Virus record (IMG/VR): IMGVR_UViG_3300029830_000112
Reading direction: 5' to 3' (one strand)
From: a virus
Length of the DNA: 5,757 nucleotides
A program made the translations under genes and the position numbers. Positions 1-5,757 of the stretch are shown here, piece after piece (position 1 is the first letter of the stretch; every line of letters begins with the position of its first letter). The notes under the pieces are model-generated. The model was given only the letters and a program-made list of their open reading frames with translations. It did no database searches and was not told the origin of the DNA.

Positions 1-77
1 ATTTGACCCATTCCCCATAGATTGCACATCCATTCACTTGTATAATATCCGTTATGCCTTATTTTATAGATTTGCTT
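1..77. repeat. 77-nt terminal direct repeat. Positions 1-77 are identical to 5681-5757, a circular-genome wrap-around artefact, giving a unit genome length of 5680 nt.
   Basis: Direct comparison of the window ends shows atttgacccattccccatagattgcacatccattcacttgtataatatccgttatgccttattttatagatttgctt at both 1-77 and 5681-5757. Confidence 0.95.
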
Positions 78-599
78 CAAGTCTTTTGGTTGCCATCCAT
101 ACAATATCATGTGATAGTGTGGTCTTGCTGTTTGCTCTCCGTACTCTCCCGCACAGAAATAGCGTAGTTGGCTCCCGTAAGCCTTCCTGAGACGTTTTAA
201 GAACTTTTGCATATCTGGATATAGCAATGTTTGCACGCTCTCTGGCGCCTTTTCTCCCGGCTTCCAGACGTATTGAACCTTACGCATGATTTCACCGGTT
301 TTAATTATCATTCCCGGCACGTGGTCATCATCATAAGTTAGTGTGATAAACCAGACTTCTTCTTTTGGCCATGATCTGGCCTCTAGCTCTATGCGTGTTG
401 TCCAGTCCTCTCTCTGCCGTATTCTGCACCCGATGCATTTTCCGCATGGTATTAACATTACTTTTGGGTCATATATTAAATCTTCATATTTCATCTGTTT
501 CCCGGCTAATTCAGAAAAGTGGGCGAGTGACATCACCCGCCCACTTATTTCTCTGTTTTCCGGGTTGTACAGCCTTATAAGTGGCTTGTAACAACTCAT
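1..599 (-). CDS. VP4: Replication initiation protein (Microviridae VP4, HUH rolling-circle endonuclease), N-terminal about 200 aa. The full CDS is join(599..1, 5680..5257) on the circular genome and encodes about 340 aa.
   Basis: Manual minus-strand translation from ATG (revcomp of 597-599) gives MSCYKPLIRLYNPENREISGRVMSLAHFSELAGKQMKYEDLIYDPKVMLIPCGKCIGCRIRQREDWTTRIELEARSWPKEEVWFITLTYDDDHVPG...YFCAGEYGEQTRPHYHMILYGWQPKDLKQIYKIRHNGYYTSEW. It then runs in frame into the 150-aa ORF at 5709. It carries RCR motif I (FITLTY, 333-350), motif II HUH (HYHMILYG, 96-119) and an N-terminal PCGKCIGCR Cys cluster (423-449) typical of gokushovirus VP4. A Shine-Dalgarno AGGTGA lies 9 nt upstream. The start ATG overlaps the VP2 stop (ATGA). 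Confidence 0.85.
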   Translation of the reverse strand, partial: MSCYKPLIRLYNPENREISGRVMSLAHFSELAGKQMKYEDLIYDPKVMLIPCGKCIGCRIRQREDWTTRIELEARSWPKEEVWFITLTYDDDHVPGMIIKTGEIMRKVQYVWKPGEKAPESVQTLLYPDMQKFLKRLRKAYGSQLRYFCAGEYGEQTARPHYHMILYGWQPKDLKQIYKIRHNGYYTSEWMCNLWGMGQ

Positions 600-1450
600 C
601 TTAAATAGTCACCTGGCTTCCTTTTTTCGCCATAATCTCCCGTTTTGTTCTGCGGTTTTGTGAATTCTCGCTTTCTGCCCTGTCTTGGCGTTACTTTTTC
701 AACTGCTTCTTCGGTTGCTTTGTCGGTTTCGTTTCCGATTTCCGTTAGTGCCTTTTGCATTCCGTAAGGTGTCAAGTGCGTTTCGCTTAGCATCTGTTGC
801 CAGCTTTGCGCCGCGTTGTACCAGTCTGATGTGCTCCAACTGCTACTGCTGTATGCGTTTGGTACAAATCCCCCGCTTCTGCTTACACCTAGTGCGCTAC
901 TACTTGCAAGCCCTATACTTGCGCCGCTTATGGTTCCCGCACTTCCTCCGGGTGTGCTCGCGCCCCCATTTGCGAATGCTAGTATAGGATTTATTCCTGC
1001 TTTTTTCATGTCCTCTACGGCTCTTTGATAGGCCGTGTTTGACATTCTTTCTTGCCATTCTCTGTTTTTCATGGCTTCGGTGCTGTTAAAATTCATTGCC
1101 GCTGCGTTCTCGATGTGGTTATAAATGCCTTGTGCAATTGCACTTAAGGTGTTGTAACCCATTTGTTTTAACATGGAGCTGCTATTGAACTGACTTTGCC
1201 TTTCTCCTTCGGCTGCTTGGTATTGATATGCACCTTCCAGCCATTTTTGCACCTGCTCGATGTTCGTTCCTGCTTGGCTTCCACTTTCTGAATGTCCTCC
1301 GCCTTGGCTTATACTGCCGCCTTGGCTTTGTGAATTTCCTGTCTGTCCCCATCCACCGAATGCGCCGCCTATGTTTTTTACTGCTCCTGCAATGCTTCCT
1401 ATTGCGTTGGCTCCTGCGCCGATCATTGACATAATGCTTAATGGATCCAT
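596..1450 (-). CDS. VP2: Minor capsid / DNA pilot protein (Microviridae VP2-like), 284 aa.
   Basis: Gly/Ser/Ala-rich N-terminal half (GAGANAIGSIAGAVKNIGGAFGGWGQTGNSQSQGGSISQGGGHSESGSQAG) followed by a helical C-terminal half, as in gokushovirus VP2. It sits immediately downstream of VP1. ATG start at 1448-1450. TGA stop overlaps the VP4 ATG. Confidence 0.7.
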   Translation of the reverse strand: MDPLSIMSMIGAGANAIGSIAGAVKNIGGAFGGWGQTGNSQSQGGSISQGGGHSESGSQAGTNIEQVQKWLEGAYQYQAAEGERQSQFNSSSMLKQMGYNTLSAIAQGIYNHIENAAAMNFNSTEAMKNREWQERMSNTAYQRAVEDMKKAGINPILAFANGGASTPGGSAGTISGASIGLASSSALGVSRSGGFVPNAYSSSSWSTSDWYNAAQSWQQMLSETHLTPYGMQKALTEIGNETDKATEEAVEKVTPRQGRKREFTKPQNKTGDYGEKRKPGDYLR

Positions 1451-1458
1451 TTTAAAAT

Positions 1459-1478
1459 AGCCCGGATTTCTCCGGGCT
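1459..1478 (-). promoter_or_regulatory. GC-rich hairpin with GAAA tetraloop between VP1 and VP2 (mRNA: AGCCCGGA-GAAA-UCCGGGCU followed by AUUUUAAAAUG). Candidate attenuator or translational-control structure.
   Basis: Perfect 8-bp inverted repeat agcccgga / tccgggct with a 4-nt loop. On the mRNA strand it is preceded by a strong SD-like GAAAGGAGGAA and followed by a short U-rich tract leading directly into the VP2 ATG. Confidence 0.45.
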
Positions 1479-1488
1479 TCCTCCTTTC

Positions 1489-3177
1489 TTACAGTTTATA
1501 CAGGCCCGGCACGCTATACAGCGGCATTCTTCGTGTGGTTTTGTTTGCCACTCGCACGGCTCCGAAAAATTGCGGTTCGCTCTGCACAATCAATGTTCTT
1601 GCAATCTCCGCTTTGCCCTCTGCCATCCATTCCTGGCTGAGCGTTGGTACTTTACTGTATATATCAGCGTAGTGCCAGAAGTCCAGTGTACCGGTCGCGT
1701 TGCTTCTCATGAGGCCGGACACCCGGTTTGGCTTCATTCGGTAGTCTGCCCACGCTTCTTGGTAACCGAATGTTTCTTCATCGGTTGCGTCACCGGTCAG
1801 CATGATTTCTTTCTTCTTTACCGGCTGTTCCCCTAAATTTGCGAACTGCGGGACATAGTAGTCCAGCCGGTCGCGTCGGCTCCAGAAGCGTTCAAGGCCC
1901 TGTTGGTAGCTTCTATTGTGCCGTACACATGCGACGCCAATGACAAAGCCGTGTTCTTCAAAGCTTTTAGTAAAAGAGCTCTCTCTGATAGGTGTTACGG
2001 ACACCGCACCTGTTTCACCGATGGGTGTATCGTTTTCCGTCTGTTGGCCGCTGGTCTGCACAATCTGGTTTACGTTGACTTGATATCTGCCGCCTCCCAG
2101 ATATTCCGGGATTTGTACGGTCTTGTCACTGATTGTTACATCCCATAATGCGCGTACTTGTTCGCGGTACCTGCTGCCACCTCTAGTCAGTGCTTCATAG
2201 TACTGTTGTACTGCTACGGCATTTCTCAATTCGTTGATGGTTGCCGCTGTTACGGCACTTAAGTCTGCCGTCATCCGTTCGCCTAATTTTAGTGACCCAT
2301 TGAATGTTCCCAGGACTGCGCGTGCTTTTTCGTTTACGTTTTCATAGTCTTGGGTCATTATTTCGTTTCCTGTGCGGTATAGATATCCTCCTGCTCCTTC
2401 TTTCCAGATTCCGGTATTTTCCAGGTCTGCGATTACTAACGGATTGTCTGTTCCGTCTGCCCAGTAAATCGGTGCATTGCCCGACATTGGTAGGTTAATT
2501 TCCGGCCCACGTTGTGGGTAAGGCATACAGGATGTGAAGTAGTCGTGGTATTTATTTACCGGAAGTAGATTTCCACCCAGTACTGCGTTTTTCAGGTCTT
2601 TTTCCAGCGTTTCTGTTGCTTCTTCGTCGAAATTGTAAGTCACGTCTTTGCTATCGTTTTTCAGAACTGCCGCGTTGTCTACGTTTTCGTCTCTAAAAAA
2701 CTCATTCCAGATTTTTACATATGCTCGGATTGGTAATGCATTGACGGTGAATGGTTTATTGATTTTCGTAGGCACACCCATGTAGTCCAAAATTGACTTT
2801 TCGTTTGGTGCAGGCTTTTCAGTTGTGCCGTTGATTTTGATTTGTGGTACTTTATATGCTATTGTTGGCATCCATGGTGTTTCCTCAACTTCACCCATGA
2901 AATTTTTAAATTTGTCCCACAAGATTCTATTTGGCGTGTAGAAGTAATAGAAGTCAATAAATGCATCATCCATGACCGGATATTTCGGTGTGCTCATGCG
3001 AATGATTGCTGTCGTGTCTACCTGGAAAGTGTCTCCCGGTAATACCTCGTCCACGAAAAATGGAATCAGTTTTCCGGAATCAAATGTTGTTAGAATAGTC
3101 TGGTCGCGATTAAATCTTGTTCGGCTTGCGTGCATTTCCGGGATTTGAAGGAAATGTCTTTCATTATTTCTGTTCAT
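1489..3177 (-). CDS. VP1: Major capsid protein (Microviridae VP1 / F-like jelly-roll capsid protein), 562 aa.
   Basis: Size is typical of gokushovirus VP1. The N-terminus MNRNNERHFLQIPEMHASRTRFNRDQ...VLPGDTFQVDTTAIIRMSTP resembles the conserved F/VP1 N-terminal beta-strand region (compare phiX174 F ...PVIAGDSFEMD...). Strong SD AGAGGAA upstream. It is the longest ORF and lies on the strand shared by all genes. Confidence 0.85.
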   Translation of the reverse strand: MNRNNERHFLQIPEMHASRTRFNRDQTILTTFDSGKLIPFFVDEVLPGDTFQVDTTAIIRMSTPKYPVMDDAFIDFYYFYTPNRILWDKFKNFMGEVEETPWMPTIAYKVPQIKINGTTEKPAPNEKSILDYMGVPTKINKPFTVNALPIRAYVKIWNEFFRDENVDNAAVLKNDSKDVTYNFDEEATETLEKDLKNAVLGGNLLPVNKYHDYFTSCMPYPQRGPEINLPMSGNAPIYWADGTDNPLVIADLENTGIWKEGAGGYLYRTGNEIMTQDYENVNEKARAVLGTFNGSLKLGERMTADLSAVTAATINELRNAVAVQQYYEALTRGGSRYREQVRALWDVTISDKTVQIPEYLGGGRYQVNVNQIVQTSGQQTENDTPIGETGAVSVTPIRESSFTKSFEEHGFVIGVACVRHNRSYQQGLERFWSRRDRLDYYVPQFANLGEQPVKKKEIMLTGDATDEETFGYQEAWADYRMKPNRVSGLMRSNATGTLDFWHYADIYSKVPTLSQEWMAEGKAEIARTLIVQSEPQFFGAVRVANKTTRRMPLYSVPGLYKL

Positions 3178-3574
3178 TTGCTTCCTCTTTCTGCACCTTT
3201 TCCTGTGCGGCTTCCTGTGCCTTTTTCAGCTCTTCCAGCTTCATGGCTTTTACCTGTGCCGTTGCCATCATCTGGTGATACTCGTGCACGTTCTGCGGCC
3301 ATCCGGTAATGTCCGTGATTGGCATTTCTTCTTTGGATAGTGCTCCCTGTGACAGACTTGCCATAAAGGCCGGGTCGAAACTTGCTTTCCTGACAATGTT
3401 CTTGATGTCACATTCGTCTGCATAGCTTTCAATTTCGGCCTGCACGTCGATGCTTTCGGTTTCCTGCAAGTACTCCTTGCCGTCCTTGTCCTTTGCCCAG
3501 ACGTATTGTTTTCGTTCGTTTTTGCCTGGTTCGGAAAAGAGGGGCTTTCGCCCCTCCTCATATCGTTTATTCAT
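3164..3574 (-). CDS. VP3-like putative internal scaffolding protein (136 aa, acidic N-terminal half, Lys/Glu-rich helical C-terminus). The assignment is by position and composition only.
   Basis: ATG at 3572-3574 with SD GGGAGGG 8 nt upstream. Its stop overlaps the VP1 start by 14 nt (ATGAACAGAAATAA), suggesting translational coupling with the capsid gene. The C-terminus (ATAQVKAMKLEELKKAQEAAQEKVQKEEANEQK) is predicted helical, like microvirus scaffold proteins. Confidence 0.4.
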   Translation of the reverse strand: MNKRYEEGRKPLFSEPGKNERKQYVWAKDKDGKEYLQETESIDVQAEIESYADECDIKNIVRKASFDPAFMASLSQGALSKEEMPITDITGWPQNVHEYHQMMATAQVKAMKLEELKKAQEAAQEKVQKEEANEQK

Positions 3575-3806
3575 GCGGCTTGCCCTCCCATACTTTTTCC
3601 GCGTCGTTCTGGAAGGTTCCTAGTTCGTCTTCAAAGTTGGCCAATTTGAACCCGGTGTAGTCCTGCGGACTTTGGCCGATAAAGGTTTTTTCGTCCTTTG
3701 CCATTACATCGCACATTCGCGCAAACGTTGCGTTATTCTTGCTCTCGCCAACCCATGCATAGCATTTTGCTACTCTGTCCCAGATACCGTAATACGAATG
3801 AATCAT
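3567..3806 (-). CDS. Hypothetical protein (79 aa), possibly VP5-like or another morphogenesis/accessory protein.
   Basis: ATG start at 3804-3806 with SD AAAGGA 8 nt upstream. Its TAA stop overlaps the ATG of the downstream 136-aa ORF (ATGAATAA). Same strand and operon organisation as the structural genes. Confidence 0.5.
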   Translation of the reverse strand: MIHSYYGIWDRVAKCYAWVGESKNNATFARMCDVMAKDEKTFIGQSPQDYTGFKLANFEDELGTFQNDAEKVWEGKPHE

Positions 3807-3822
3807 TGTTTTTGTCCTTTCT

Positions 3823-3924
3823 TTACAGTCGGATGCCTCCGCGCATGGGCTTCTGACTTAGGTTGATACTCTTTGTTTTTCGTGCGGTGACGTTGAACAT
3901 GTGTTTATCTTTTCGCATATTCAT
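3823..3924 (-). CDS. Possible small basic peptide (33 aa, MNMRKDKHMFNVTARKTKSINLSQKPMRGGIRL). Candidate J-like / ORF8-like DNA-binding packaging protein.
   Basis: Found by manual translation of the 120-nt gap between the 75-aa and 79-aa ORFs. It holds 9 Lys/Arg in 33 aa, with the ATG 4 nt after the upstream stop. Only a weak purine-rich stretch lies upstream, and it is too short for the ORF track. Confidence 0.25.
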   Translation of the reverse strand: MNMRKDKHMFNVTARKTKSINLSQKPMRGGIRL

Positions 3925-3928
3925 TTTC

Positions 3929-4156
3929 TTACGATATGCCATTGTAGAATCCCCTTCTGATAAGTTCAAGTTCTATTGCGTTTGTAAAGCTCTTTAAGTG
4001 CCAGATTTCGTCTAGCATCTTCTTTGCGGTTTCTATGTCCGCTATCTTGCGCAAGAGCCTATATTGCGCGTTGATTTCTTTGTATTTTTTTTCAAGTAGT
4101 TCAGACAATTCTTTTTCGGTCTGGTCTCTTACGTTCCAGCTTTTGTGCAGGTCCAT
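3929..4156 (-). CDS. Hypothetical protein (75 aa), predicted helical / coiled-coil-like.
   Basis: ATG at 4154-4156 preceded by SD AAGGAG at 8-nt spacing. The sequence MDLHKSWNVRDQTEKELSELLEKKYKEINAQYRLLRKIADIETAKKMLDEIWHLK carries charged heptad-like periodicity. Same strand as all other genes. Confidence 0.5.
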   Translation of the reverse strand: MDLHKSWNVRDQTEKELSELLEKKYKEINAQYRLLRKIADIETAKKMLDEIWHLKSFTNAIELELIRRGFYNGIS

Positions 4157-4281
4157 GGTTGTTACTCCTTCTCATTCGTCGCGTCCTTCAGCGCGTGATA
4201 GATTTCATCGAGCCGGTCTAGGATTTGCAGCATAATGTCGATTGCCTTCTTGACGTCCTTAACGTTGATAAGTGCTATGGT

Positions 4282-4674
4282 TTATACCCCCTTTCTGTAC
4301 TTGCTGTTGCGAGTGTCAAAGTGCACCCACGATTTATAGACGATGATGCCGCAAGAGTTTGGCGCCAGCTTGTCAAGCTCTTTTGCAACCTCCTTTGGCG
4401 TCATGTCTTTCACGGTGATATCGGCCGCCATGCCGCGCGTGTGGTAGCTGTATTTTGCTCCACCTACTTTTTTGTTATGCTCTGGCGTTCTATATCCGCT
4501 TGTTACGATTACTGGCTTTTTAATTGTCTCGCGTAGGATGTCTAACAGGATTGCTAGACACTCGTCTACAAAGACAATTGGTGACCCATCTTTACACGCG
4601 AATTCTTTTACTTTGAAGTGTTTTGTGATTTTGACGTCTGCTTGTTCGTCTAATACATATGCTTTAATTTCCAT
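4282..4674 (-). CDS. Peptidase M15 (LAS-family zinc D-Ala-D-Ala carboxypeptidase / L-Ala-D-Glu peptidase fold, Peptidase_M15_3-like), 130 aa. Likely cell-wall hydrolase / endolysin.
   Basis: The translation contains the LAS-family zinc-binding signature in the canonical order and spacing: KEFACKDGS...SGYRTPEHNKKVGGAKYSYHTRGMAADI...SWVHFDTR (SxHxxGxAxD plus a terminal WVHxD His). ATG at 4672-4674 with SD AGGTGA 5 nt upstream. A sigma70-like promoter lies directly upstream. Confidence 0.75.
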   Translation of the reverse strand: MEIKAYVLDEQADVKITKHFKVKEFACKDGSPIVFVDECLAILLDILRETIKKPVIVTSGYRTPEHNKKVGGAKYSYHTRGMAADITVKDMTPKEVAKELDKLAPNSCGIIVYKSWVHFDTRNSKYRKGV

Positions 4675-4705
4675 GGCGATTCACCTTTTTTTGTATTCTA
4701 TCGGT

Positions 4706-4734
4706 ATTGTATCATTCAATCTCCGAATTTTCAA
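4706..4734 (-). promoter_or_regulatory. Sigma70-like promoter for the peptidase/accessory-gene module: -35 TTGAAA (4729-4734), 17-nt spacer, -10 TACAAT (4706-4711), read on the minus strand.
   Basis: TTGAAA-N17-TACAAT (5/6 and 5/6 matches to consensus, optimal spacing). It lies about 30 nt upstream of the peptidase ATG, within the intergenic region. Confidence 0.45.
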
Positions 4735-4781
4735 GGGTTGCGTTAGCAACTTTTGAAATTTCGGTGATTTCGCCGTTAGGC

Positions 4782-4946
4782 GTTTTCAACAGTTTCCACA
4801 TAGTTTTCAACTTTTCCACATTGTTAAACTTTATCACAATAGAGTATTTTAACAATTCAACAAGTTTTTAACATTTCTTTTAACAATAGTTTCTTTCATA
4901 AAGAAACGTTATTGTGTTATTTTTTAATGGTTTTCAACTTTTCAAC
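4782..4946. repeat. AT-rich iteron region. It holds a 21-bp tandem direct repeat (4782-4802 gttttcaacagtttccacata; 4803-4823 gttttcaacttttccacattg). It holds three same-orientation DnaA-box-like 9-mers (4792-4800 GTTTCCACA, 4812-4820 TTTTCCACA, 4830-4838 TTTATCACA). It holds TTTTCAAC x4 (4783, 4804, 4931, 4939) and TTTTAACA x3 (4847, 4866, 4878). It also holds an 8-bp-stem hairpin gtttctttcataaagaaac (4889-4907).
   Basis: Repeats read directly from the sequence. TTTTCCACA fits the relaxed DnaA box consensus TTWTNCACA exactly, and the other two have one mismatch each. Confidence 0.6.
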
Positions 4947-4980
4947 TACCTCTACTACTACGACTACAACAAGTTAATAA

Positions 4981-5032
4981 ATATATGCGCGTGCGTGCGT
5001 GCGCGTCTACGTGCGCGTATGCGCGCGCATAC
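4981..5032. repeat. Alternating purine-pyrimidine (Z-DNA-prone) tract: atatatgcgcgtgcgtgcgtgcgcgt-ct-acgtgcgcgtatgcgcgcgcatac, including the perfect 16-bp palindrome gtatgcgcgcgcatac (5017-5032).
   Basis: 26 nt of perfect Pu/Py alternation, a 2-nt break, then 24 nt of perfect alternation. (GCGT)n-like composition. The palindrome was verified by reverse complement. Confidence 0.8.
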
Positions 5033-5036
5033 CTTT

Positions 5037-5155
5037 GAGCGCTTTAGCGCGAACCGGCGTCCGCGCGATTTCAGCGCGGTCAGCGGCTGATCAGTCAGCC
5101 GCGACGCCGTGCCAATAGGGGTCCGGGGACGCGAGCGGAACGCGGCCCCGGGATA
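5037..5155. other. GC-rich island (about 70% GC by eye versus about 43% for the genome) made of consecutive stem-loops. These are gcgc-ttta-gcgc (5042-5053); ccgcgc-gatttca-gcgcgg (5061-5079); gcggctga-tcag-tcagccgc (5083-5102, with the embedded palindrome ctgatcag); and the compound hairpin tccgggg-a-cgcg-agcggaa-cgcg-g-ccccgga (5122-5152). Candidate complementary-strand (ssDNA to dsDNA) origin or another structured cis element.
   Basis: Inverted repeats verified by reverse complementation. The compositional contrast with flanking AT-rich DNA is obvious by eye. Confidence 0.5.
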
Positions 5156-5207
5156 TTGTTTAATTTCAATCACTGCCTAGACTGATACATGGAGCCTTTA
5201 AACGGCT

Positions 5208-5242
5208 CTAGCCCAGTACCTACTTGATAGGTACTGGGCTAG
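5208..5242. other. Perfect 15-bp hairpin ctagcccagtaccta-cttga-taggtactgggctag, 15 nt downstream of the VP4 stop. Candidate rolling-circle origin (Rep nick site in the loop) or transcript-end structure.
   Basis: Perfect 15/15 inverted repeat with a 5-nt loop. A second smaller hairpin gagcc-tttaaac-ggctc (5192-5208) abuts it. The loop plus flank on the displayed strand reads ACTTGATA, the same 8-mer as the phiX174 origin core caACTTGATAttaata. Confidence 0.5.
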
Positions 5243-5256
5243 GTGACACCAAAATC

Positions 5257-5757
5257 TTATAAACCGCCTTTTTGGAGCTTTACAGACTTTTTGATAACTC
5301 TTTCTTTTGTCTTTAAGTCCTCTTCAAAATCTGCATTTTCATACTTTAGTCGGTTTTGTTCGATTACTGCTTTCTGTCGGTTCCTCTTGATTCTCCATAA
5401 TCGTTCTGGGTTTTCTGCTTCCATCATTTTTTCGTAATATCGCGGAATTTGTGCTTGTTTTCCGTTGGTGCATTGAATATAGCCTTTTCGCCATATTTCT
5501 TCTTTGTGCTCTTGATAGTAGGAATCGCCAAGTCCCGGTTTTAGGCTCATACATGCAAATGGTTTTTGCTGGCCTAGCTCGTAGTATTGGTTAGCTTTTT
5601 TTCCGTCTATTTCGTACATCTTTTTTGTGACGTACCCCGCAACATATCTATAGGTTTCGGGTGTTGCCTGTGCTATCTGGATTTGACCCATTCCCCATAG
5701 ATTGCACATCCATTCACTTGTATAATATCCGTTATGCCTTATTTTATAGATTTGCTT
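5257..5757 (-). CDS. VP4: Replication initiation protein VP4, C-terminal portion (contains the catalytic Tyr motif III). Same CDS as feature 1..599, continued across the window edge.
   Basis: ORF-track 150-aa ORF at 5257..5709 contains YVAGYVTKK (YxxxYxxKK, 5620-5646), the twin-tyrosine catalytic motif of phiX174-A/VP4-type Reps. The reading frame stays open upstream through 5757, equal to position 77, into 78-599. TAA stop at 5257-5259. Confidence 0.85.
   Translation of the reverse strand, partial: KQIYKIRHNGYYTSEWMCNLWGMGQIQIAQATPETYRYVAGYVTKKMYEIDGKKANQYYELGQQKPFACMSLKPGLGDSYYQEHKEEIWRKGYIQCTNGKQAQIPRYYEKMMEAENPERLWRIKRNRQKAVIEQNRLKYENADFEEDLKTKERVIKKSVKLQKGGL
5681..5757. repeat. Second copy of the 77-nt terminal redundancy (same sequence as 1-77).
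   Basis: Exact 77/77 identity with 1-77. Confidence 0.95.

Follow-up and report, generated by a model that had tools for sequence, protein, structure and literature searches.

A complete circular gokushovirus genome with a candidate origin stem-loop on the strand opposite to its genes

The IMG/VR record IMGVR_UViG_3300029830_000112, a stretch of 5,757 nucleotides (nt) called the window below, almost certainly represents one complete gokushovirus genome. The genome is a circle of 5680 nt that was circularly permuted, cut within the gene of the replication initiator (Rep) and written out with 77 nt repeated. All long open reading frames (ORFs) of the circularised unit lie on the minus strand of the window, and the longest plus-strand ORF has 103 amino acids (aa). 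A conserved stem-loop next to the Rep gene, which from its sequence is the best candidate for the replication origin, lies on the plus strand. With about 84–89% nucleotide identity to its relatives, the genome is a new lineage of a known human, pig and monkey gut clade of Gokushovirinae and is otherwise ordinary.

The circular topology is backed by three concordant lines of evidence, namely the terminal overlap, the restored Rep ORF and the collinearity with independent assemblies. Comparison of the window with itself showed that positions 1–77 are identical to positions 5681–5757 over exactly 77 nt, leaving a unit of 5680 nt. The chance of a 77-nt match is 4^-77, which is negligible in 5.7 kb. 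No other long direct repeat was found in the window, the next family being 28 nt long with 71% identity. The Rep ORF of 340 aa is intact only on the circularised unit, with the ends joined through a single 77-nt copy. Two genomic copies would add 77 nt to Rep, which is not a multiple of 3, so that the frame would be shifted and the 340-aa ORF lost. In coding-strand coordinates rotated to the VP1 start, the junction of the window falls between 3177 and 3178. Single alignments in ungapped order cross this junction in GenBank record KX513877 (L001; 2645–3649) and in the IMG/VR relatives L003 (2579–5680) and L004 (1–4998), with 87–90% identity. The genome of GenBank record KT264792 likewise aligns through the junction. 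These independent assemblies are collinear through the junction and therefore show one copy of the 77 nt with the same neighbours on both sides. The sequence-only reading had described the window as a complete circular microvirus genome with a 77-nt wrap-around and had stated that Rep must be joined across the edge, and both claims are borne out.

The length of the overlap points to its source. Exact terminal repeats were found in 45 of 80 related IMG/VR contigs, with lengths of 55 nt (15 contigs), 99 nt (13), 119 nt (6), 141 nt (2), 77 nt (2) and 127 nt (1) and a few other odd values. We take the lengths of 55, 77, 99, 119, 127 and 141 nt to be assembler k-mer sizes (SPAdes and MEGAHIT defaults), 77 being a common SPAdes k. 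Terminal repeat length tracks assembly settings and not phylogeny, and the 77 nt are thus a wrap-around made when a circular or head-to-tail template was assembled. A de Bruijn-graph assembler working at k = 77 would have made one walk round a circular (or concatemeric) template.

Two other explanations of the topology were considered. A real terminal redundancy or tandem duplication in a longer or linear molecule is extremely unlikely. Sequence alone cannot tell a k-mer overlap from a short genuine repeat, but a second copy within the genome would break Rep, the relatives are single-copy at the junction, and the overlaps in related contigs follow assembler settings. Microviridae genomes are, moreover, circular. 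An integrated prophage (XerCD/dif-type or other) in place of an episomal or virion circle is also very unlikely, although gokushovirus prophages exist (PMC7062461). Integrated relatives with 39–48% VP1 identity were found in contigs of Clostridia-type metagenome-assembled genomes (MAGs), some of them in tandem, and assembly of such tandem copies could also yield a circle. Against this, the 77 relatives that carry the stem-loop are almost all unit-length contigs, and the window has no base beyond one unit plus the overlap, hence no host flanks. The sequence-only reading had named host DNA beside the unit and a genuine duplication as the observations that would speak against it; the window contains no such DNA, and the independent assemblies no second copy. 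Scanning 185,579 species-representative genomes of bacteria and archaea twice gave no close prophage; the best VP1 identity was 51%, in what is itself a 5.8-kb free contig. The single-sequence scan had no match and the profile scan found distant relatives only, so that neither scan indicates a host or a prophage for the clade. Neither host flanks nor a close bacterial copy was thus found; a dif-like motif was not searched for.

Several related sequences are longer than one unit. The over-length contigs L012, L032 and L043 are probably chimeric assemblies and were rejected as evidence of integration. L032 (IMGVR_UViG_3300045988_004182, 10.7 kb) joins two different microviruses head to tail, with both stem-loops on the anti-coding strand. 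L043 (8.8 kb) has an unrelated host-like or tailed-phage-like flank with a 457-aa ORF on the opposite strand, and L012 (7.2 kb) carries unrelated extra sequence and has no recognisable Rep. Tandem gokushovirus prophage pairs were seen at 6262–16671 of L178, in a Clostridia MAG with copies 97.8% identical, and at 1980–10193 of L196, in Intestinirhabdus alba with diverged copies (68–74%). Both pairs are reminiscent of tandem XerCD-type integration. Gokushovirus sequence was also found in the 30.5-kb IMG/VR contig L145 and in L115 (8.5 kb, stem-loops at 3474 and 7595), which may be prophages or concatenated genomes.

The unit encodes a Phage_F-type jelly-roll capsid protein, a two-tyrosine HUH initiator and a DNA pilot protein, and its length falls in the range of small circular Microviridae genomes (about 4–6.5 kb). 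The internal scaffolding protein VP3 (Chlamy_scaf) and VP5/ORF5, which mark Gokushovirinae, are both present. No Pfam or PHROG match to the phiX-type D, G or J proteins was obtained among the eight minus-strand ORFs of at least 69 aa that were scanned, and a J-like peptide in a shorter ORF is possible. The top DNA and VP1 matches are records classified as Gokushovirinae, and a look-up of the exact VP1 protein gave no match. VP1 shares 82–86% amino acid identity with human gut gokushovirus VP1, 38% with that in Chp2 and 37% with that in phiMH2K. The sequence-only reading had proposed to place the genome by VP1 and VP4 searches against references; the DNA and VP1 searches assign it to the gokushoviruses.

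The nearest GenBank records are SH-CHD14 (KX513877, 5726 nt) and WZ-2015a 44Mky08 (KT264792, 5730 nt), both complete circular Gokushovirinae from human faeces. They share about 84% nucleotide identity with the window over about 74% of the unit, and 82% VP1 identity. L003 and L004 are closer, with 88.7% identity over 100% of the unit. The window therefore represents a distinct lineage or a species-level variant. The two GenBank records and the IMG/VR contigs UViG_3300045988_001840 and _000721 (VP1 identity 88–89%) resemble the window in gene set and order, M15 peptidase, size class and topology, and all four carry the stem-loop after Rep on the anti-coding strand. The gene order of the clade is VP1-VP2-VP4(Rep)-[long intergenic region]-M15 peptidase-ORF75-VP5-VP3. 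In 47/47 complete relatives, whose units range from 5557 to 6130 nt, Rep is followed by a long intergenic region and then the M15 peptidase. The sequence-only reading had put 5680 nt at the upper end of gokushovirus-like sizes. This holds against the classical 4.1–5.2 kb, but within its own clade (n = 47) the genome is mid-range.

The stem-loop is 6 nt away from the stop codon of Rep and contains a perfect 15-bp inverted repeat at 5208–5242. On the VP1-coding strand, its 10-mer CTATCAAGTA was found in 48/48 complete genomes and in 76/82 loci of the clade, always on that strand. When 44 distinct versions of the element were aligned, the loop and the adjacent GTGTCAC were invariant. Compensatory double changes were present in 5 of 12 stem pairs (15 cells), a level reached by 0 of 500 shuffles. 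In L046, L056, L062, L075 and L077, the loop motif CTATCAAGTA recurs 60–73 nt downstream of the first copy, which may reflect a duplicated origin-like element.

The element resembles the origin of phiX174 (J02482, nt 4299–4328, nick between G4305 and A4306; rep_origin annotated at 4306), which reads CAACTTG/ATATTAATAACACTATAGACCAC with the slash marking the cut. In register, 17 of 32 nt are identical between phiX174 4299–4330 and plus-strand positions 5220–5251 of the window, including C-ACTTGATA and the terminal CACC. The cleavage core CAACTTG/ATA corresponds to CTACTTGATA at plus-strand positions 5220–5229, with 9 of 10 nt identical, and this core is invariant in 48/48 complete relatives. 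The phiX174 3' 'key' sequence, about 20 nt downstream, may have its counterpart in CACC in the same register, and the flank GTGACACC does not vary within the clade and hardly varies in other lineages. The two Rep proteins are homologues with the active site Y-VA-x-Y-V-x-KK in common. By analogy with phiX174, we infer that Rep nicks ACTTG/ATA between G5226 and A5227 on the plus strand. The phiX174 origin differs in lying inside gene A, without a hairpin and on the coding (viral) strand, whereas the element of the window is an intergenic stem-loop of 13–15 bp on the anti-coding strand. A covariance model of the element gave no match in phiX174 at E ≤ 1e-3.

Chp2 (Chlamydiamicrovirus, AJ270057) provides a closer parallel. 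Its coding strand reads CTAGCGTATAACAG-TCTACTTGATC-TGTTATACGCTAG-GTGATAGC, an architecture like that of the window, with a CTAG-stem, the loop TACTTGAT and CTAG-GTGA, between VP3 and ORF8. Chp2 shares homologues of VP1, VP2, VP3, VP4 and VP5 with the window, but its genome has 4563 nt, a different gene order and no M15 peptidase, and its VP1 is only distantly related. SpV4 carries a weaker version of the element. The origins of CRESS-DNA viruses are similar in principle only: a conserved loop on a covarying stem beside the rep gene, with a nonanucleotide nicked by an HUH Rep. Genes of CRESS-DNA viruses may be antisense or ambisense relative to the packaged strand. These viruses differ in their Rep superfamily, which has no relation at the family level, in the loop sequence and in their eukaryotic or archaeal hosts.

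Two other functions of the stem-loop were rejected. An intrinsic terminator was dismissed because no T-run follows the stem, because the element is missing from the terminator scan and because its orientation to the genes is not conserved. A prophage att/dif site was dismissed because the L178 and L196 pairs are tandem prophages with one internal copy each, and also by the conservation pattern, an invariant loop with covarying arms being the reverse of dif. Nothing relevant to an origin hairpin in gokushoviruses or to antisense packaging came up in literature searches, and neither the gokushovirus stem-loop that bears the phiX174 core nor its occurrence in two orientations was found described in the searchable literature; older Chlamydia-phage papers were outside reach, and an earlier description of the Chp2 hairpin is possible.

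The orientation of the element was compared across lineages. A set of 80 further gokushovirus contigs was gathered, with VP1 51–84% identical to that in Chp2. The covariance model was built from 29 elements of these contigs and that of Chp2; each of them is on the coding strand, and the clade of the window contributed none. A cmsearch with this model matched the plus strand of the window at 5206–5253 over its full length (49.8 bits, E 2.4e-13); the coding strand scored 11.3 bits, for the stem only. In the diverse gokushovirus set, 76/76 matches were on the coding strand. In the clade of the window, all 79 matches (77/82 loci) were anti-coding, both GenBank relatives included. Among 79 loci from bacterial genome assemblies, 52 had the element on the coding strand and 6 (plus 2 weak cases) on the anti-coding strand. 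More than 100 gokushovirus lineages besides Chp2 carry the element on the coding strand. A neighbour-joining tree of VP1 places the anti-coding cases near the clade of the window, interleaved with coding-strand lineages. Parsimony on this rough tree, which has no support values, gives at least 4 switches of orientation.

Strand composition mostly follows the orientation of the element. Single-stranded DNA (ssDNA) phages favour NNT codons, a preference that has been ascribed to C>T pressure acting on the single strand (PMC3278643). For VP1 we calculated the coding-strand AT skew at 4-fold degenerate sites (AT4), where negative values mean T-rich. AT4 is -0.53 in phiX174, -0.32 in Chp2 and on average -0.50 in contigs with a coding-strand element (38/47 strongly negative), versus +0.60 in the clade of the window (n = 73, range 0.39–0.79). 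In the genome-derived set, AT4 is negative in 40/52 loci with the coding orientation and positive in 5/6 with the anti-coding orientation (Fisher p = 0.0066). The sign of AT4 follows the element in every local contrast on the tree. Anti-coding L172 (+0.57) contrasts with coding-strand L170 (-0.64) and L169 (-0.41), anti-coding L216 (+0.44) with coding-strand L177 (-0.76), and anti-coding L243 (+0.23) and L219 (-0.02) with coding-strand L178 (-0.40). At 4-fold sites, GC skew gave no information in any group, phiX174 included, and no element was detectable in phiMH2K (AT4 +0.26). As exceptions to the pattern, coding-strand elements together with A-rich VP1 4-fold sites (AT4 +0.05 to +0.5) were observed in L096-L107, L129-L147, L144, L183, L212, L218, L230, L237 and L239, which are mostly marine, several apparently from aquatic samples.

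Substitutions at 4-fold sites were polarised on terminal branches and expressed as rates per ancestral base in coding-strand notation; at equilibrium such rates largely repeat the information of the composition, and sequences within a clade are not independent. In a cluster with the element on the coding strand, C>T exceeds G>A (0.256 vs 0.037), G>T exceeds C>A (0.118 vs 0.032) and A>T exceeds T>A (0.131 vs 0.027). In the clade of the window the same pairs are 0.052 vs 0.151, 0.010 vs 0.053 and 0.011 vs 0.059. Its spectrum is the reverse complement of that of the other cluster, and in both groups the excess of C>T, G>T and A>T is on the strand that bears the element (ACTTGAT). C>T and G>T are classical signatures of single-strand damage. 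Transcription-linked asymmetry would put the excess on the coding strand in both groups and therefore cannot explain the flip. The strongly strand-asymmetric spectrum is of the type attributed to ssDNA and would fit an ssDNA virion.

These observations bear on which strand is packaged. The sequence-only reading had taken the displayed strand as the complement of the virion and mRNA strand. It is the complement of the mRNA, but the virion part of that claim is unsupported, being a family-level assumption, since the origin-like element and the skew both point to the displayed strand. To our knowledge, all characterised Microviridae are positive-sense. In the clade of the window, the anti-coding element, the A-rich synonymous sites and the mirrored spectrum would point the other way. 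Given the position of the element on the anti-coding strand, the strand that is nicked, displaced and packaged is probably the displayed plus strand. Packaging in microviruses is coupled to strand displacement, so an inverted origin would mean an antisense virion strand. This would come at no cost to expression, because transcription needs the double-stranded form anyway. We lean slightly towards the view that the displayed plus strand is the virion strand, and that this clade and a few neighbouring lineages package the complement of the mRNA (negative-sense), with the origin inverted relative to all genes. Following phiX174 and Chp2 biology, the ssDNA would be converted to a double-stranded replicative form, and one strand would serve for the transcription of all genes, with mRNAs in the sense of the minus strand of the window. 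The two-tyrosine HUH Rep would nick the origin and drive rolling-circle replication, and the displaced plus strand would be packaged. VP1, VP2 and VP3 would build the procapsid, VP5 would accompany the DNA, and the M15 peptidase would lyse the host.

It is also quite possible, though short of an even chance, that the stem-loop is not a viral-strand origin but a Rep terminator, a complementary-strand origin or a packaging signal, so that its orientation is uninformative and the virion carries the coding strand like the characterised members of the family. The element sits just downstream of the Rep stop, where a terminator would be expected, and conserved hairpins without an assigned function have been reported in other microvirus clades (PMC9865509). 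The positive-sense polarity of those members and the lineages that depart from the skew pattern also favour this explanation. Against a terminator, however, stand the missing T-run and the silent terminator scan, and in Chp2 and the many lineages noted above the element, with its own polarity kept, is found elsewhere in the genome and on the coding strand, whereas an RNA terminator cannot work both ways. The invariant loop and GTGACACC flank on a covarying stem suggest sequence-specific recognition, and in both groups it is the strand with the element that shows the excess of C>T, G>T and A>T. If the element were a complementary-strand origin or a packaging signal, it would itself need to be on the packaged strand, leading to the same conclusion on polarity. 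Only a function at the RNA level or a strand-symmetric function on double-stranded DNA escapes this conclusion, and the conserved polarity of loop and flank in both orientations argues against those.

Some points weigh against our overall interpretation of a complete circular genome with this stem-loop as its origin. The case for circularity consists of the overlap, the restored ORF and the collinearity, and a head-to-tail concatemer would yield the same contig. Some lineages with a coding-strand element do not have T-rich synonymous sites (9/47 contigs and 12/52 genome-derived loci), so skew marks the packaged strand only imperfectly. No experimentally mapped gokushovirus origin was found in the reachable literature. 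The ssDNA nature, the host, the lytic lifestyle and the Rep cleavage at 5226/5227 are all things we infer.

The features of the window are listed in Table 1. The eight minus-strand ORFs were scanned against Pfam and PHROG.

Table 1. Features of the window and their coordinates (E, expectation value)
Feature	Position	Strand	Remarks
Overlap copy 1	1..77		Inside the Rep coding sequence; relatives have one copy only and align straight across
Overlap copy 2	5681..5757		Assembly wrap-around, to be trimmed
Rep/VP4, 340 aa	599..1 joined to 5680..5257	-	PF23343, E 4e-17; phrog_942, E 9e-111; matches span residues 1-336
Rep N-terminal part, codons 1-200	1..599	-	ATG at 599..597, ATGA overlap with the VP2 stop
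Rep C-terminal part	5257..5680	-	TAA at 5259..5257; collinear with KX513877, L003 and L004 over the junction
VP2, DNA pilot protein, 284 aa	1450..596	-	phrog_8742 'pilot protein for DNA ejection', E 2e-123, full length
VP1, major capsid protein, 562 aa	3177..1489	-	PF02305 Phage_F, E 9e-138, residues 11-559/562; phrog_514, E 7e-197
VP3, internal scaffolding protein, 136 aa	3574..3164	-	PF09675 Chlamy_scaf, E 4e-9; phrog_24309, E 3e-82; in 47/47 complete relatives
VP5 / ORF5-type small DNA-binding protein, 79 aa	3806..3567	-	PF20577, E 2e-9; phrog_1670, E 2e-17; in 47/47 relatives
ORF75, 75 aa	4156..3929	-	Between M15 peptidase and VP5; tblastn matches in 44/47 complete relatives, 49-91% identity
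M15 (LAS-type) zinc peptidase, 130 aa	4674..4282	-	PF08291, E 8e-22; phrog_894 endolysin, E 1e-43; SYHxxGxAAD ... VHFD motifs
Long intergenic region, 582 nt	4675..5256		Rep to peptidase; variable in relatives (352-932 nt) except the origin-like stem-loop
Sigma-70-like promoter match	4706..4734	-	TTGAAA-17-TACAAT with TG extension; upstream of the peptidase gene; consensus scan 10/12
AT-rich stretch	4780..4950 (4780-4980 in a wider reading)	-	GTTGAAAA x4 and AACTTGTTG x2, in coding-strand reading
GC-rich hairpin cluster, about 70% GC	4985..5160		Alternating CG/CA runs; genome 45% GC
Origin-like stem-loop	5206..5253	+	Reads CTAGCCCAGTACC-TACTTGATA-GGTACTGGGCTAG-GTGACACC
Predicted Rep nick site, G/A of ACTTG/ATA	5226..5227	+	By analogy with phiX174; positions 5222-5229 are ACTTGATA

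The Microviridae core set on one strand (VP1, a Gly-rich VP2 and the HUH Rep/VP4), as described in the sequence-only reading, is supported by Pfam and PHROG matches, all on the minus strand. The genes of VP3, VP5, ORF75 and the M15 peptidase and the 582-nt intergenic region are additions to that list. The first 65 aa of VP2 contain 26% Gly and 41% Gly plus Ser. Rep has the motifs FITLTY, HUH (H161-Y-H163) and Y212-VAG-Y216, the last aligned to Y343-VAK-Y347 in the phiX174 A protein.

Relatives in GenBank have VP4 annotated from the position of Met23 of Rep, a start that we rejected in favour of Met1. The first 22 aa (MSCYKPLIRLYNPENREISGRV) are kept in at least 36 relatives, and residue 23 is usually Tyr there, not Met. 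The deposited VP4 coding sequences in KX513877 (1–957) and KT264792 (2636–3592) encode 318 aa, and the in-frame upstream VSCYKPLIRIYSPEDREISGRV (GTG start) is conserved clade-wide. These VP4 annotations probably begin 22 codons late and are that much too short at the start. An inverted repeat of 14 bp (93%) was also observed at 517–546 in the N-terminal coding region of Rep, centred on codon 23, the start in the GenBank annotations.

The M15 peptidase is likely an endolysin. In 47/47 complete relatives its gene is found downstream of Rep, and 'peptidase M15' is annotated in KX513877. An M15 peptidase in Microviridae was reported earlier by Roux et al. 2012 (PMC3394797). ORF75 has no Pfam or PHROG match. 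Its homologues are on the same strand and overlap no other gene, and they are unannotated in KX513877 and KT264792. ORF75 is probably a real, clade-specific gene. The Arg-rich ORF69 (5173..4964, GTG start) was rejected as a gene, being found in only 3/47 relatives and lying in the GC-rich hairpin region. ORF71 and ORF97 were not called, as they are alternative frames of Rep and VP3 and their conservation follows the main frames. A search of the window for transfer RNA genes found none. No Rfam family reached the gathering score, and the only three sub-threshold matches, to microRNA families in the (CG/CA)-rich intergenic stretch, were rejected as low-complexity noise.

Read on the coding strand from the Rep stop, the intergenic region contains the 15-bp stem-loop, a small second hairpin, the GC-rich hairpin cluster and the AT-rich stretch. 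Only the first stem-loop is conserved clade-wide. The DNA fold of 4960–5256 has a predicted energy of -74.2 kcal/mol (z = -6.3). The GC-rich island is common only to the closest relatives L003, L004 and L007, other clade members having different inserts, and the cluster is a candidate complementary-strand priming region or variable filler. In the AT-rich stretch, the AACTTGTTG copies are 109 nt apart, and GTTGAAAA occurs 2–5 times in the intergenic region of 45/47 relatives. Both repeats are possibly promoter or regulator sites. The sigma-70-like promoter match is weak, because such sites in the window are not above those in shuffles.

The genome adds one lineage to a well-sampled gokushovirus clade of the mammalian gut, which alone is of little consequence. 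The 48-nt stem-loop, with the phiX174 cleavage core and near-universal in gokushoviruses, is a concrete candidate origin. Clades differ in the strand that carries it, and the mutational skew shifts accordingly. Should the element mark the packaged strand, genome polarity would not be a fixed family trait in Microviridae, and the 'NNT codon' rule for ssDNA phages (PMC3278643) would fail predictably in these clades. Gokushovirus records oriented by gene direction would then not always show the virion strand. If this is true, record orientation would matter for strand-specific virome quantification, for primer and probe design and for codon-based host prediction.

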